Shown piece by piece: positions 2,540-56,652 of a stretch of DNA of 64,000 bases. Position numbers and translations under genes: made by a program. The notes under the pieces are model-generated. The model was not told the DNA's origin. It did not search any database and saw nothing but the letters and a program-made list of their open reading frames with translations. This DNA comes from Escherichia phage Mangalyan. The stretch lies in the sequence record OR449013. One strand, given 5' to 3'. Each line of letters opens with the position of its first letter. Position 1 is the stretch's first letter.

Positions 2540-2950
2540 TCATTTAAGTTTAATGCAGTTTTTAAGCTGGCGTTCCATACGATCCACAACCTTGTCTGGA
2601 ACATCATGAATGCTTTTATTACCGTGGCGGTTTTCAACCACGATCACGGTATAACTATACCCATGACTGATTGCCATGTCAACATATTCCTGCACATGTT
2701 TTTCTTTTGTAAACGTATTACTTACCACGATACGGTCGTATCCCATACGCATCATATCTTCTACGTTATCTTTGCACCATTTTGCTGCGAGTGTTACTTT
2801 ACTTGCATCCCAGTTGTAATTGCCGTCATCGTCATACCAGAACATGTCGTTCTCAAAATGTGGATACAGACCCTCTAAAGATAGCGCATTTGCCAGTGTT
2901 GATTTGCCAGACCCTGGTAGACCACGCACGATATATAGCATTTTAGACAT
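2540..2950 (-). CDS. P-loop kinase, polynucleotide 5'-kinase-like
   Basis: Walker A GLPGSGKST near N-terminus; start placed at ATG 2948-2950 (MSKMLYIV) preceded by GGAGGG; immediately upstream of the phosphoesterase gene. Confidence 0.65.
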   Translation of the reverse strand: MSKMLYIVRGLPGSGKSTLANALSLEGLYPHFENDMFWYDDDGNYNWDASKVTLAAKWCKDNVEDMMRMGYDRIVVSNTFTKEKHVQEYVDMAISHGYSYTVIVVENRHGNKSIHDVPDKVVDRMERQLKNCIKLK

Positions 2951-9439: not shown

Positions 9440-9748
9440 ATGCTTAAAATTTTTATTATTGAAGATAAAGATATTGTCCAGTTGTATGCAAACGAGAATC
9501 ATAAAGGTATGATTCTGAAGAAGGCAAGCAACCTTCATGAAAACACAATTCAACCTGGCGATGTAATTAAGATCTGTGGTTATATGATACCAGACTCCTT
9601 GATGAAAATAACCCACCACTGGGGGTCTAATCCGTTCCTTTTTGAAAAGTATTGGGATGTTGAGTCACTTATTGCAGAGAGTGATGATGCATTCCATTAC
9701 AGCATCCAACCATCTTGCAGAATAACTAACAGGAGGGTCTTTGAGTAG
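9440..9748 (+). CDS. hypothetical protein (102 aa)
   Basis: ATG 9 nt after AGGAGAA. Confidence 0.5.
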   Translation: MLKIFIIEDKDIVQLYANENHKGMILKKASNLHENTIQPGDVIKICGYMIPDSLMKITHHWGSNPFLFEKYWDVESLIAESDDAFHYSIQPSCRITNRRVFE

Positions 9749-42303: not shown

Positions 42304-42430
42304 CACACAATTAGTTGCCCGGCTAAAGTGCTGGGAGCACCCATAACACATCTTTCAACTAAATTTTCTACCACCACAATCACTTACCTCCCACACATGA
42401 CTGTTTGCTTGTTTAGTGAGCAGTCATGCC

Positions 42431-42458
42431 TTGACATTCTTGCCTATCCTGATAAAAT
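42431..42458 (+). promoter_or_regulatory. candidate sigma70-like promoter at entry to ORF-free zone
   Basis: TTGACA 42431-42436, 16-bp spacer, TAAAAT 42453-42458; no ORF downstream. Confidence 0.4.
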
Positions 42459-42654
42459 TAAGTTCTTCTCTTTTCTTTTACCGAGTAATTCGGGTTTTCT
42501 GTTCTCTTCGGTTTGAAGGGGTATGGAGATACACCTGAGTGAACAGGGTGAACAACCGAACCATTGGCTATGGCATTAGCATGGCGAAGCGGACGGGTGA
42601 CGAAAGAGGGGCCGGAGGACACCAGTCACTGCCATATGATATATGGGTGATAAC

Positions 42655-43193
42655 CTGAAGAGTCTGAATAAGTGTTTAAGTACCAGTCAGAGGAAAAGGT
42701 GAATGGTAGCCGAAGGGGGAGGGGGGTTACCTGCTTCTGTAAACATGCATCTGAAATACTACTTTAGATAACCTGAACCTGCCTTTCTGACAAATATTCC
42801 CTATTAAACTTGAATTATTTATAGAAAATACCACAACACCACTTAAGTCTTTGATTTTACACACAAATCTTACAGATATTAAACCTCTCTATTTAACATA
42901 CCTGTAACATATACTATACTCCACCTGTCTGATCAATTTCCCCAACTACATCCCCATATTTTCCCTGTCTGTACTACCCCTGCCCCGCCGGGAGTCCCGT
43001 CATATCTGGCTTTCCAGCAAATATCACACCCACAAATATCATCACCTGAAGAGGGTTTCATCCCATAATACATGCCTTACCTGAAGAGCGCTTCATACAC
43101 CACATAAATTTTTTAATTGACCCCCTCCCCGCCGCCGGAGAGGTTGGCTTTTCCCACACAGACCTGGAGAGTCAGCCAGAAATATCTGAAGAG
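42655..43193. repeat. four dispersed copies of about 15-bp motif CCTGAAGAG(G/C)G(T/C)TTCA
   Basis: CTGAAGAG at about 42655, 43046, 43081, 43186. Confidence 0.7.
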
Positions 43194-43750
43194 GGTCTAG
43201 TTCTGCCCTGTCATAAGCGGTAGCGACTGGAGTGCTGCTAGGCGGACGAAATGGGAATACTTCTCATTCTTATAACAATTCTCAAATATCGAGGCAGTGA
43301 GGCAAATTAATAGGTGAGGCCGTTCACACAGTGGCACAACATTTGCAACCTATCTTGTGGGATTGAATGAGAATACCTATCATTGTGAGAACTGTTATCA
43401 TTACGGGCAATTTAACATAATACCCATTATGCGCACCACTGGCGATACATACAGGGATTGATAACATGGGTTACTGTTTACGCACATAACAATTATATTT
43501 CTTACTATTTGTGTGGGATATAGTTAGCAGCCGATAGATTAGATATTAACCTGCAGACTTCTGACCGTCCAGACGTCTAAACGCCCACACACCAAGGATT
43601 ATACATACACTCCTGAATGTAAACAGGGCCGCAAAAATGCTACCATACAAGCTTGTAAATTTTTCATGCAGCACTTGACAAAGAGGAGAAAAACTTGTCT
43701 GACATAATGTGACCTAACTGACACAACATGACACTTTTACACACCTATTA

Positions 43751-43820
43751 GTTTACACACTGGATTGTTTACATTCCTGATTGTTCACATGCTAACCATT
43801 TACATGATTGACTGTTTACA
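43751..43820. repeat. iteron-like array: five copies of GTTTACA (variants GTTCACA, ATTTACA) at 15-16 bp spacing
   Basis: copies starting about 43751, 43767, 43783, 43798, 43814. Confidence 0.75.
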
Positions 43821-43833
43821 CACCGATAATCAG

Positions 43834-44083
43834 CCATGCCATTCGTTTGCATGACAATAATTATACATGACAATAATCGCACTGATCATAATTAGCATGA
43901 CATAATATAAAAGCAGGGCAACTATTAGCAGATCTATAGTTGCCTTGCTTGTTATGTCATGATTAACTAAATACAAGGCAACTATGATCTGATTAATAGT
44001 TTGCAGACAAACTATCACGGGGGTGATGGTTACTGCTTTTATATTATGTCGCGACTCCGTCGCGCCATGCCATTCGTTTGCAT
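43834..44083. repeat. direct 19-bp repeat CCATGCCATTCGTTTGCAT (two copies) flanking inverted repeats GGCAACTAT / ATAGTTGCC
   Basis: 19-mer at 43834-43852 and 44065-44083; palindrome arms at 43917-43925 / 43936-43944; second related palindrome about 43977-44005. Confidence 0.7.
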
Positions 44084-44697
44084 AGTTGCCTTATTGTTAC
44101 AGATAAAATAATTGTATTGTTAATTATTTCTTATCTTTCTATTAGTCATCTAATGATTTCAGTTAATATAGTAACGTACAGTAAACATTAGACGACTAAA
44201 GATTTCTATGCTTATGGTAACCTAACGTGACAATTCCAGACTGTTTACGAAAAATGTTGACACCTGGGCCGATTTATGTTATGCAGTTTACACGAATAAT
44301 TATTTTATGCAGGTATTGACTATTCCGTTATTCTATGGTTGGAATAAATGCTTAGCAGGCTATAGAATGGCGAGCGTACGTAAATTCTGAGATCTGGCGG
44401 CTATAGTTATACTCGATTTTTCACGTAGAAAACGCTTTTGTAGTTATGTAAGTGTATGACTTATAAAGTTGACAAGCTATTGAATATATGCATCAGGTTA
44501 AATTTTGTGCAAATGCTGCATTACGTGCAATTTTGGAAGGAAAAACGTGTAAAAATGGCCCTGCTACCACACAATGAAAAATTATGCAATAGTTATTTTA
44601 TATGTATGTTTGTACAGTGTGTGGGATTGATGGCTCGTCAATTATTCCACTTGCCAGGTAGGGCCGTTTATGGTAGGGGGAAGAGCAGACAAAAAGA

Positions 44698-44715
44698 AAG
44701 GGGCCTAAGCCCCTT
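44698..44715 (-). terminator. rho-independent terminator for leftward transcripts
   Basis: AAGGGGC CTAA GCCCCTT; on minus strand followed by UCUUUUUGUC. Confidence 0.65.
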
Positions 44716-44733
44716 GATAATTCAGTTAAAAAA

Positions 44734-45153
44734 TTATAATGATTCGTATATTTCAAAAATCCGATTTGCCAGGTCGTTACGGTAGCGGAATTTTTCCTCG
44801 CGTTTGATCATAAGATCTTTATAGCCGTACTCTTTAAGCACTTCATTAACTTTATGGCGGCATACTTTCATATTATCCTGCGCGTCACCAATAAATCTGT
44901 TGCTATGGTGCATGGCTTTAATTTCTTCTTCCAGGACCAGGGCAACTATGCGGACCGGATCAAGCTGATAGGCGGTAACATCCATGCGGCATTGTAGACG
45001 GCTTTTAACGTCTGCCACCGGATATACTGCAACCTCTTCCCCGTCAACATTGACAATAATTAGTTTACCATCGATTTCGAATCCTTTCGCCGCCGGACCG
45101 TGACAAAAAGCGTTATCAAAGCTATATGCCGGATTATTAGATTTAATGTTCAT
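44734..45153 (-). CDS. hypothetical protein (139 aa)
   Basis: ORF followed by terminator. Confidence 0.55.
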   Translation of the reverse strand: MNIKSNNPAYSFDNAFCHGPAAKGFEIDGKLIIVNVDGEEVAVYPVADVKSRLQCRMDVTAYQLDPVRIVALVLEEEIKAMHHSNRFIGDAQDNMKVCRHKVNEVLKEYGYKDLMIKREEKFRYRNDLANRIFEIYESL

Positions 45154-45917: not shown

Positions 45918-46190
45918 TTACTTACGGCGGCAGAATTCAAGCGTTTTTAATTGATAATCTTCCTCAGCCTGGAGTACAACCGCCTCGATCATTTCGTTGG
46001 CATTGTTGAAGCCATACCCTTTAGCGAACTCATCCGCACCACCTTCGTGATCATGTTCTGCGTTCATCGCTTCCACGAAATGGAATTCAAGATTATTGAG
46101 ATAAGGGCTTGATGTTCCGTCCTCTTTTTCGATGAGATCCCAAATAGCATTAAAACGTGATTCGACTTCTTGATTAATCCAGCTTGACAT
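45918..46190 (-). CDS. hypothetical acidic protein (90 aa)
   Basis: ATG preceded by AGAAGAGAGGAAA and GC hairpin. Confidence 0.5.
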   Translation of the reverse strand: MSSWINQEVESRFNAIWDLIEKEDGTSSPYLNNLEFHFVEAMNAEHDHEGGADEFAKGYGFNNANEMIEAVVLQAEEDYQLKTLEFCRRK

Positions 46191-46401
46191 AATGTTTTCC
46201 TCTCTTCTGGTTGTTGTGTGGGCACTTTTGCCCCTTCAAGATAAATGTTACCCCACCACCTGGCAGATGTCAACGGTTTTTATAGTTCTTATATGACAGG
46301 CAGGCCCGGTGATTGTCTCCACCCGTCGCCAGGTGCCTGCCGTGAAACAAGTATAACAAAAAACAGGACCATTGCAAGCCCTGTTTTGTAGTTTATAAGG
46401 A

Positions 46402-55096: not shown

Positions 55097-55465
55097 GATT
55101 TTTTATCCTCTCTGTTAATTAGTGTGGTGTTGTTCACCTTGCGAGGATAAGAATAACAGAACTATCCGAGCTGTCAACCATTAGTTAGAATTATTTTTTG
55201 GGCAGAATTCTCCAGCCGCCGCCCCTGCCAGGTTAACCATCATTTTTTCGTACTCTTCTTTATGTTCCAACGCTCCCGCCATAGCCTTTTCAACCAGGGC
55301 GATAACTTCAGCGGCATTGATCGCTACATTTTCCAGGGGATTATATTACTTTTCATTTTTGTACCTCTTCTGTAGCTGCTTACTTTATAGCGTGGACCTG
55401 CCAGGCTGGCCCCGCCAGGTTGCAACGGTTAGCGCATCAGGTTAGAATTTTTTTTTTGAAAAGTG

Positions 55466-55494
55466 TTGACAGCGGCCCCGCCAGGTGGCACAAT
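55466..55494 (+). promoter_or_regulatory. candidate rightward promoter driving tandem structured units
   Basis: TTGACA 55466-55471, 17-bp spacer, CACAAT; GC-rich spacer GGCCCCGCCAGGTGG. Confidence 0.4.
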
Positions 55495-55510
55495 ATACCT
55501 ATCGAAAGGA

Positions 55511-55735
55511 CGGCAGGCACCGGTGACGGGGGAGACAACCACCGGGGATGGGCGCTGCATAAAATGAGAACGGTTATCATTATCATTTAAAAATTTATGC
55601 AAAAAGTCCTTGCTTTCTTTGTCCTGTGTGATACTATAATAACAAGCCGGGGCAACAGGGGCCGGGAGACAATCACCGGGGGTGCCCGTTATTCTGCAAA
55701 CGAGAATGATTATCATTCAAAATTCTAAATGAGAA
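55511..55735 (+). ncRNA. two tandem about 85-nt related units (candidate small structured RNAs or regulatory elements)
   Basis: unit A about 55511-55600 and unit B about 55649-55735 share GGGAGACAAYCACCGGGG and GAGAAYGRTTATCATT; second unit preceded by TATAAT 55635-55640; no ORF with RBS. Confidence 0.3.
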
Positions 55736-55899
55736 CTCCTCGCATTTAATAAATTTAATTAGCATGCTAATTACCCTCCGTAACAATTTCCTATAAAACA
55801 GTATCCCATAAAATATTCCCATATAGAAATTTTAAAAATCCATTTCTGAAAACGAAAAATCGATTTCGTCCCCAAAAATTTCAGGTCGAGATCCGGAAC

Positions 55900-56025
55900 G
55901 ATTTCCAGAAAATCCGATTTAGAAAACGAAAAACAGATCGAGTACTGAGAAATTTATCGAGAAAAATTTTCAGAAAATCCAAGCCATGAAATGAAAAGTA
56001 GATCGAGTACTGGAAAAATTGTACC
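55900..56025. repeat. tandem about 65-bp AT-rich direct repeat (two units) within a larger repeat-rich spacer
   Basis: AGATCGAGTACTG at about 55935 and 56000; CAGAAAATCC at about 55908 and 55971; GAAAACGAAAAA at about 55849 and 55922. Confidence 0.7.
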
Positions 56026-56319
56026 GCAACCCACTGATAGTGATGGGTTTTCCGTCATAAATCACTAAGAGTGAGTGGAGAAAGGTATGGTGGAGAGGTG
56101 TGTATGTGTGGGAAATATGGAACGGTGATCTCGAGTATGGTGCAAACGGCTAGATAGATTGGCACAATTTTCCGCGCTTGTGTTGAAAAAATCCATTTTA
56201 GTTTTCGATCCATTTTCTGATTTTCTAAGAATTTTAAAATATCTATGTGTTCAAAATATCAGGAGAAAATACATTTTAGAAATTCCCCTGATTTCTGGCA
56301 ACTTGGCAATTTAAAAATA

Positions 56320-56652
56320 TCAGGTGCCCAGTTTGTTCTTTCCTTTATATAAACGCAAGGGTATAGTTTTTGTAACAGTCCACCTTCCCACACCTTCCCA
56401 GTTCCAGTTGTAGGCATGGTACCCGGTTACGCATGCACTGCTAGAGTGGTCATAGGCATAAGAGAACGCTATACGCACCAAATGGAACCAGTCTTTCCAC
56501 GGTTGTGGTCCGTAAGCTTTTCTCCAACACCGACACAAACTAAATGTCTCAAGAATAGGCAGGATAACAAATCCATACACCGCCACCAGAATAGCCAGCG
56601 CAATGATTGTCAGGAATACATACCCTGCAGTTGAAACGATGATCTCTGTCAT
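56320..56652 (-). CDS. membrane protein (110 aa)
   Basis: N-terminal YVFLTIIALAILVAVYGFVILPIL. Confidence 0.5.
   Translation of the reverse strand: MTEIIVSTAGYVFLTIIALAILVAVYGFVILPILETFSLCRCWRKAYGPQPWKDWFHLVRIAFSYAYDHSSSACVTGYHAYNWNWEGVGRWTVTKTIPLRLYKGKNKLGT

Follow-up and report, generated by a model that had tools for sequence, protein, structure and literature searches.

Promoter-associated tandem units with Fur-type operator clusters in a non-coding gap of the rV5-like Escherichia phage Mangalyan

The analysed stretch of 64,000 nucleotides from Escherichia phage Mangalyan (sequence record OR449013; hereafter the window) belongs to an rV5-like coliphage (Vequintavirus) and carries two tandem units, A and B, in a gene-poor gap between leftward genes. 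Each unit consists of a G-rich leader with an invariant motif (core 1), followed by a second shared motif (core 2) that matches the operators of the host iron sensor Fur. The preferred account of these elements, whose chances we regard as evenly balanced, is that units A and B form a tandem cis-regulatory module at which Fe2+-Fur binds and gates rightward antisense transcription. The features of the two units and of their right-hand neighbourhood are as follows.

55466-55494, plus strand: promoter P1, TTGACA-17-CACAAT with a TG extended -10 and a 10/12 consensus match in the promoter scan; its spacer carries GGCCCCGCCAGGTGG (contains CCWGG), and the predicted start lies near 55501.
55508-55558, plus strand: leader A, G-rich, with core 1 GGGAGACAACCACCGGGG at 55530-55547; its 5' half resembles the leader of a third unit, C.
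55560-55590, no strand assigned: Fur-type operator cluster A; 19-mers at 55560, 55566 and 55572 match GATAATGATAATCATTATC at 13, 16 and 13 of 19 positions, with 6-bp phasing.
55610-55640, plus strand: putative promoter P2, with a perfect TATAAT at 55635-55640 and a poor -35, TTGCTT, at 55610-55615 (19-nt spacer).
55647-55688, plus strand: leader B, G-rich, with core 1 GGGAGACAATCACCGGGG at 55664-55681; conserved in Vequintavirinae and Stephanstirmvirinae.
55696-55720, no strand assigned: Fur-type operator cluster B1, AAACGAGAATGATTATCATTC; 19-mers at 55696 (14/19) and 55702 (15/19), with 6-bp phasing; kept in all relatives.
55727-55747, no strand assigned: Fur-type box B2, AAATGAGAACTCCTCGCATTT, 29 nt past B1; 16/20 against the phage-box consensus.
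55759-55770, no strand assigned: palindrome TTAGCATGCTAA, 11/12 of the SlyA consensus TTAGCAAGCTAA, 12 nt past the last Fur-type box.
55817-56020, no strand assigned: three AT-rich iterons of ~65-74 nt, AAAATCC..GAAAACGAAAAA..GATCGAGTACTG, GC content 31-32%.

The two copies of core 2 are 73% identical over an alignment of 33 nt and, like those of core 1, stand 134-136 nt apart; the sequence that they share, GAGAAYGRTTATCATT, is half of a 21-bp palindrome, AAATGAGAATnATTCTCATTT. The 19-mer at 55566-55584 (16/19) is the best match to the classical Fur box in the 64 kb and the sole one with three or fewer mismatches (0.02 expected). Scored against the phage-box consensus, the sites at 55562, 55698 and 55727 reach 16, 17 and 16 of 20; the Fur-controlled regions of ryhB, fhuF, gpmA and fepA-fes of E. 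coli K-12 score 16, 16, 17 and 14. Six sites in the 64 kb score at least 15/20, all inside the two non-coding regions of the window. Overlapping clusters phased by 6 bp (6 or 3 bp) are a hallmark of footprinted E. coli Fur sites (PMC2189734), and a 6-bp phasing is present at 55560/55566/55572 and at 55696/55702. By sequence match, core 2 is a cluster of Fur-type operators. It shares with the Enterobacterales Fur boxes of ryhB, fhuF, gpmA, fepA-fes and iucA the 7-1-7 palindrome TGAnAATnATTnTCA (16/19 and 15/19 for the phage boxes against GATAATGATAATCATTATC), the overlapping 6-bp-phased clusters, and scores equal to those of real operators. Unlike the bacterial boxes, those of the phage lie at ~+50 to +100, between tandem promoters and in arrays with ~29-30-bp spacing, within a non-coding region of a virulent phage that has no iron gene downstream.

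The palindrome consensus AATGAGAATnATTCTCATT adjoins iron and metal-uptake genes across bacteria. At least 120 bacterial contigs, drawn from many phyla, contain the exact palindrome AATGAGAATNATTCTCATT, for the most part between genes, and metal or iron genes account for at least 14 of 30 flanking open reading frames (ORFs), taken unselected as the first 30 in list order. The ORFs beside it include those for ZnuA (three), FecI-like ECF sigma factors (two), ferritin, AhpC, TonB-dependent receptors (two), Fe(III)-binding proteins (three), an FTR1 permease, and a siderophore-type binding protein (Peripla_BP_2). Across phages of seven host genera (E. coli, Klebsiella, Salmonella, Cronobacter, Pectobacterium, Erwinia, and Serratia), the adjoining iterons differ and the boxes are alike; relatives carry one to four boxes with ~29-30-bp spacing. 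No Fur homologue is encoded in the window. Since the same boxes recur across phage families, T5 included, a host protein is favoured as the probable binder.

The original prediction had each unit ending in a tiny isoleucine-rich frame. The letters ATG...ATC ATT are indeed present, and cluster A includes the frame ATG AGA ACG GTT ATC ATT ATC ATT TAA. Because core 2 matches the Fur box, these letters are better read as operator sequence than as codons: they form the right halves of the Fur-type palindromes, and the ATG belongs to the box consensus AATGAGAAT.

Core 1 (GGGAGACAAYCACCGGGG) is exact in leaders A and B, and a copy with two mismatches lies at 46304-46321 on the minus strand. These three matches in the window compare with 0.03 expected, and 0 of 100 shuffles reached three; together with the alignment of core 2, this places the earlier claim of two units with shared cores beyond chance similarity. 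The sequence AGACAAnCAC(C) is invariant across two phage subfamilies, 25-37 nt past the -10, and the distance from core 1 to the box is steady at 34-38 nt in relatives. It is probably a site that is read as primary sequence, in DNA or in nascent RNA. A scan of viral contigs for GGAGACAANCACCGG brought up relatives already known and one Certrevirus unit C; its other matches are at chance level. A pairing between motif and box was considered and rejected, as the variable motif position changes and its proposed partner does not. In a diverged Vequintavirinae contig, L152, positions 2590-2740 (minus-strand reading) hold a Fur-type box and then three to four copies of ACGGTGATTnATAGTTAC; read on the opposite strand, the CGGTGATT found there gives the 3' part of core 1 (AATCACCG). 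These inverted copies hint that the motif may be a protein site used in both orientations or may pair within the transcript.

Rightward transcription from the units is plausible. The site TTGACA-17-CACAAT, named in the original prediction, was recovered by the promoter scan as P1. The TATAAT of P2 is likewise in place, although the scan did not call this promoter. Since TTGCTT, the sole -35 candidate, stands at 19-nt spacing, P2 would be a weak, -10-only promoter or one dependent on read-through from P1. The P2 homologue in relatives is canonical, with CTTGCA or CTTGAT, 16-17 nt, and TATATT or TATTAT. A leftward promoter overlapped by the Fur-type boxes (TTGAAT-18-CAGAAT) was rejected: it matches at 8/12 only, its -10 is not conserved (e.g. 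in L008), and it was called in no relative.

A GC-rich motif, GGCCCCGCCAGGT(G/T), with the Dcm site CCWGG occurs at 55221-55237, 55394-55424, 55474-55490, and 46250-46265, that is, upstream of P1, within the P1 spacer, and within the spacer of the second promoter of unit C. Early-type promoters of relatives have similar GC-rich spacers bearing CCWGG.

The region around the units is widely shared: a sequence search with 55100-56400 matched 121 phage records, the best being phage DrSchubert with 95%. The nearest clear gene to the right of the gap is at 56320-56652 (minus strand), and on the left the genes resume near 55360 and 55096. Both units run antisense to these flanking leftward genes, as originally predicted. 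Identity in the bins of 55450-55950 is 96-100% in phage EduardKellenberger and 90-98% in phage phita32, as compared with 52-80% in the flanks; the bin that holds P1 (55450-55499) is 96-98% conserved. In ~110 genomes, a 321-nt query is identical at 95-99% and the wider 1.3 kb at 85-95%. Block 55450-55950 is far more conserved than its flanks and, judged by this, is under selection.

Unit B is kept well outside the genus: in Mydovirus KNP2, in Seunavirus PVP-SE1 and GAP31, in Certrevirus CR8, CB7, and POP15, in Erwinia and Serratia phages, and in phAPEC8-like Stephanstirmvirinae. Every relative with unit B has a canonical promoter, a G-rich leader with AGACAAnCAC(C), and a first box 34-38 nt further on. 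On the upstream side, relatives have one or two more promoters directed rightward, together with a small gene in that direction (DUF7170 or phrog_19316) and an extra conserved non-coding element. The window has none of these; neither the small rightward proteins nor this 'RNA1' element has a homologue in it. The phage contig L152 possesses a single unit, behind a promoter homologous to P1. On this evidence, unit A, whose leader is similar to unit C, is best read as having been inserted later between P1 and the ancestral unit B, in the rV5 lineage only.

The extra promoter-proximal element of the relatives (L003, 1290-1425; L005, 1310-1445; L006, ~1365-1480) is conserved and contains GAGACGCCACCCCACGGCGnAAAGGCGGGGCTAAC. 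It lies between the DUF7170/phrog_19316 gene and the unit B homologue, has no Rfam match, and begins with a sequence (GAGACGCCACC) that is faintly like core 1. To the left of the units in the window, a small leftward gene at 55181-55358 (minus strand) seems to be interrupted: the frame ATG AAA ... AAA ATG TAG ends after 10 codons, and the -1 frame continues with a plausible protein (VAINAAEVIALVEKAMAGALEHKEEYEKMMVNLAGAAAGEFCPKNN). Possible explanations are a frameshift, a pseudogene, or a later start.

The third copy of the leader, unit C, lies on the minus strand, some distance from the tandem pair, and has the following features.

46299-46341, minus strand: unit C, third leader, with core 1 TGGAGACAATCACCGGGC and flanks GGCAGGC...GCCTGCC; sense to its own gene block.
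46350-46387, minus strand: overlapping terminator and promoter; an intrinsic terminator (CAGGGC..GTCCTG and a T6 run) and a predicted promoter, TTGCAA-16-TATACT, that feeds unit C.
46245-46273, minus strand: second promoter past unit C, TTGACA-17-TAACAT, with CTGCCAGGTGG in the spacer, upstream of the gene at 45918-46190 (minus strand).

The terminator loop at 46350-46387 holds the -35 of the next promoter, and TATACT comes after the T-run. This overlap is conserved in phAPEC8-like phages, and one record annotates it, as a terminator only. Unit C itself is also kept in phAPEC8-like, Justusliebigvirus, and Certrevirus phages, and in Certrevirus (DU_PP_IV, L289) a Fur-like box stands between unit C and the second promoter. 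The succession of promoter, leader motif, box or boxes, and next promoter is therefore a recurring one, seen at unit A, at unit B of relatives (where P3 follows in PVP-SE1 and KNP2), and at unit C of Certrevirus.

In the proposed module, a host sigma-70 promoter would fire rightward, against the surrounding genes, through a G-rich leader with the invariant AGACAAnCAC(C). The polymerase would then meet the Fur operator cluster at ~+50 to +100, which is followed by another promoter or by the AT-rich iteron region. Positioned between the tandem promoters on one side and the iterons on the other, bound Fe2+-Fur would act as a roadblock or gate, so that antisense transcription into the iteron region would depend on the iron status of the host. 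We infer the binding, the rightward transcription, and the direction of the effect.

Several observations weigh against this reading. The boxes begin ~50-60 nt past the predicted starts and not over the -35 and -10 elements, as at most Fur-repressed promoters, and no promoter consistently overlaps them on either strand in the window or in relatives. Fur clusters of E. coli that lie between promoter and gene repress only weakly (PMC2189734). Separate boxes ~29-30 bp apart are unusual for bacterial Fur operators and would fit a sponge or a nucleoprotein array equally well. P2 is weak in this phage, the motif AGACAAnCAC(C) is left unexplained, and the comparable boxes of phage T5 belong to the injection-stop region and have no evident promoter in front of them. 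Finally, the leader of unit C stands without a Fur box in this phage; leader and boxes can therefore act independently.

The spacing of the boxes is the starting point for a different view, namely, that they bind Fur for its own sake, as a sponge or recruitment array, or that Fur serves as an architectural protein on the AT-rich iterons. As a sponge, replicating genome copies would titrate Fur and de-repress host iron uptake, e.g. for an iron-dependent ribonucleotide reductase of the phage. One to nine separate strong boxes with ~29-30-bp spacing in non-coding repeat regions of three phage groups are consistent with this, as is a second box cluster in the other non-coding region of the window that shows no obvious relation to promoters. 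Multicopy Fur boxes are known to titrate Fur, as in the Fur titration assay (cited in PMC2189734). PVP-SE1 and L152, however, have one box only, and the fact that the box keeps its place behind the leader and between promoters points to a local role in cis. We consider titration or recruitment rather unlikely as the primary function.

Box arrays occur in T5-like phages as well. Repeat region 3 in the left terminal repeat of T5 holds the same box, e.g. AAATGAGAATCATTATCATTT at T5 9576-9596, arrayed in a large conserved untranslated region. In the T5 record (AY587007, L189), the boxes at 9468-9637 are the annotated copies 1-4 of 'direct repeat C' together with palindromes E, G, and I, beside the 7.9% nick; these injection-stop boxes reach as much as 19/20 when scored with the phage-box consensus, and 16/19 with the classical box. 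Further Fur-type boxes are present in L187 (1200-1394) and L188 (1200-1440). T5-like Salmonella phages carry six to nine boxes next to the DnaA boxes; in Kenya-K20 and S131, boxes in this number adjoin DnaA boxes where the terminal repeat ends on its inner side. In T5-like phages, TTAGC-N2-GCTAA palindromes occur nearby, as in Mangalyan. Unlike in the window, where the region is free of DnaA boxes, the T5 boxes are paired with DnaA boxes and a nick site, and T5 has no AGACAAnCACC leader. The window locus gives no sign of a terminal repeat and in this respect does not qualify as a repeat region 3. A preprint that dissects the T5 region lists its repeats without mention of Fur or iron (10.1101/866236).

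The connection to T5 came through an IMG/VR contig, L010, which was found via the box and led to 151 phage records with box arrays, T5-like phages included. Between 1800 and 2100, this contig has three identical Fur-type boxes with an exact 30-nt period, and a fourth, degenerate one, in a ~700-nt non-coding stretch; it matches known phages via the box region only.

Fur-regulated genes on temperate phages are a further point of comparison. The gene stx1 is Fur-regulated cargo of a temperate phage. The same holds for sitABCD on lambdoid coliphages (PMC6969025). In both cases, as proposed here, a phage genome is wired into the host Fur regulon; unlike here, where the boxes occupy a core non-coding control region of virulent phages, the boxes of the prophages overlap promoters of cargo genes. 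The searchable literature yielded no account of Fur operators that lie in the core non-coding DNA of virulent phages, and nothing specific on Fur and virulent phages, on the rV5 origin, or on transcriptomes of rV5-like phages.

A second alternative, compatible with the gate, is that the tandem promoters make origin-activating or primer transcripts: G-rich RNA fired into the AT-rich iterons would open or prime an origin, with Fur as a modulator. The iteron cores GATCGAGTACTG contain GATC, the iteron region is conserved to ~55950, and shorter sub-repeats (GAAAATCC/ATTTTAG) extend past the iterons up to ~56280. The rightward promoters face the three conserved iterons. Homologous triple iterons (~65-75 nt), preceded by another rightward promoter, exist in the same layout in KNP2 and PVP-SE1, and the leaders are G-rich on the non-template strand. 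With direct repeats, an AT-rich stretch, and promoters aimed at the repeats, 55817-56280 looks like a replication origin or control region. The rV5 origin is unmapped (PMC3606486), which leaves room for such an assignment.

Transcription-activated origins include the primary origin of T7 (tandem promoters and an AT-rich stretch), oriF and oriG of T4 (a promoter and an unwinding element), and lambda ori. The window resembles them in that its tandem promoters point into a non-coding stretch that is AT-rich and bears iterons; it differs in that its promoters are of the host sigma-70 type, in that Fur-type operators stand between promoters and iterons, and in that the arrangement is so far known from sequence. 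Other findings speak against an origin here. The segment 55430-56320 is without DnaA boxes, no initiator gene was identified beside the region (the proteins encoded next to the iterons have no assignable function), and unit C has the same leader without iterons. In addition, the transposon-intolerant region reported in a related phage corresponds, by presumed homology, to the other 2-2.5-kb non-coding region of the window. On balance, we give origin activation a low, though not negligible, probability as the main role of the transcripts.

This second, larger non-coding region (42304-44790) lies where rightward and leftward gene blocks converge, has repeats of its own, and is 93-97% conserved in Vequintavirus. 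It contains the other three Fur-type boxes of the window with at least 15/20, at 43249, 43365 (with an adjacent box at 43385), and 44731. Its equivalent in phage CarlMeissner is located between bas48_0134 and bas48_0133. In phage Bas54, an intergenic region of ~2 kb tolerated no transposon insertions (10.1101/2025.11.20.689424); because of the position in CarlMeissner, 42304-44790 is probably its counterpart.

The palindrome at 55759-55770, next to the last Fur-type box, may be a second host-factor site. SlyA is an antagonist of H-NS. Its consensus, TTAGCAAGCTAA, was taken from PMC5797941. The palindrome contains the sole exact TTAGCNNGCTAA of the window (a near copy is at 44352), and palindromes like TTAGCATGCTAA are also present beside the box arrays of L152 and, twice each, of the T5-like phages K20 and S131.

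The original prediction interpreted the units as paired small RNAs, leader-peptide attenuators, or a two-component RNA module of the toxin/antitoxin type. What holds of this interpretation is that the units are promoter-associated, selected, non-coding, and directed against the gene block; the three proposed functions gained no support from the analysis. The best of them would be trans-acting small RNAs, in which the conserved loop GAGACAAUCACC, part of which is identical to the anti-Shine-Dalgarno tail of 16S rRNA, would pair with target mRNAs, and Fur would regulate or truncate the transcript. A promoter directly precedes a foldable segment of 45-50 nt in ~20 lineages, the invariant motif sits in the predicted loop, and an AU-rich hairpin (UAUUCU-GCAAAYG-AGAAUG) with a U-rich tail follows, for which a terminator-like call was obtained in phage anhysbys. 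Like RyhB-type small RNAs, the predicted short promoter-proximal non-coding transcript has Fur boxes near it; unlike them, it has the box after the start site and shows no terminator, supported structure, or sequence similarity.

Whole-region folds of the two strands gave z-scores of -1.1 and -0.7, and leader folds of single homologues ranged from -2.4 to +1.1. A fold of leader A is possible at -16.6 to -20.1 kcal/mol, and a hairpin with the motif in its loop can be folded in every homologue, with several stem changes that look compensatory by eye. Covariation gives no support: RNAalifold on 20 homologues found 0 pairs. A hand-derived model with an outer and an inner stem round the motif failed two tests in which the 5' and 3' flanks of the lineages were swapped. 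The native flanks paired no better than the swapped ones, with a summed energy of -189.5 kcal/mol versus -184.2 +/- 10.5 (1572 of 5000 derangements as good, p ~0.31); the inner stem alone scored 42 versus 41.3 +/- 2.4 for swapped flanks (p ~0.44), and its advantage over shuffled flanks was marginal, 278 of 5000 shuffles being as good. The claim of a structured RNA was dropped because of these two failures. To judge from the homologues, the leader flanks are simply G/C-rich, and the primary sequence is what is conserved. A G-quadruplex was rejected as well, since four G-runs occur only in leader B of the rV5 type and are unconserved in relatives.

No terminator-like site was called on the plus strand of 55500-55800, and a tRNA/tmRNA scan was negative. 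A search of the window and four relatives gave no relevant Rfam match at the gathering and E-value thresholds. Sequences complementary to the motif are no more frequent in the rest of the window than chance would give (13 versus 15.6 expected). Lacking terminator, Rfam match, and an excess of complementary sites, the small-RNA reading is without positive support beyond the promoter, and the units are not equivalent partners of a pair; we regard it as improbable.

Similarly improbable is that a DNA-binding protein encoded by the phage uses the boxes as its operators, their resemblance to Fur sites being a coincidence. Arrays beside iterons do resemble those of initiators or repressors, and relatives encode small rightward proteins (DUF7170, phrog_19316) just upstream. 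Proteins of these types are absent from Mangalyan, which retains the boxes; T5-like phages share the boxes, the same palindrome stands at bacterial iron genes, and the match extends to the 6-bp phasing typical of Fur.

The possibility that the repeats are coding repeats of a minus-strand protein, annotated in rV5 as ORF198 (window 55429-55716, 95 aa), is very slight. The open frame exists and is annotated in rV5, DrSchubert, and other records; many records have nothing annotated here, and no more than 6-26 codons of the frame remain in L015 (Vequintavirus), L152, KNP2, PVP-SE1, and anhysbys despite conserved DNA. Its start codon falls inside a Fur-type box, with the nearest Shine-Dalgarno-like sequence 19 nt off. 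On the plus strand, the frames that cross the leader are displaced in anhysbys relative to PVP-SE1. By these comparisons, the region of the units is non-coding.

Leader-peptide attenuators or a two-part RNA toxin/antitoxin built on the isoleucine-rich frames can practically be dismissed: short ATG...ATC ATT frames do occur, but they are the operator palindrome itself, have no ribosome-binding site, are not maintained as reading frames in relatives, and are accompanied by no terminator/antiterminator pair, no plus-strand genes or operon downstream, and no small hydrophobic toxin ORF, the minus-strand ORF being broken in relatives.

The Fe2+-Fur-gated module thus remains our preferred reading of units A and B, and it suggests that the phage may tie part of its programme to the iron sensor of the host. 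It is possible, though we say so with considerable reserve, that at least three groups of virulent phages (rV5-like, phAPEC8-like, and T5-like) keep, within conserved non-coding control regions, high-affinity operator arrays for host Fur, and possibly for SlyA, and thereby co-opt the iron sensor. If this is true, Fur could gate antisense or origin-directed transcription, organise the DNA of iterons and injection-stop regions, or be titrated to switch on iron uptake, and the injection-stop palindromes of T5 would be Fur sites. Virulent phages would then read or manipulate the iron status of their hosts, unlike the textbook boxes at iron genes and the Fur-regulated cargo of prophages. The finding bears on where and how replication of rV5-like phages starts, on the purpose of the antisense promoters in the gap, and on the injection-stop repeats of T5. 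It also has a practical side: rV5-like phages are common broad-host-range candidates for therapy, and they must work in iron-limited host environments.

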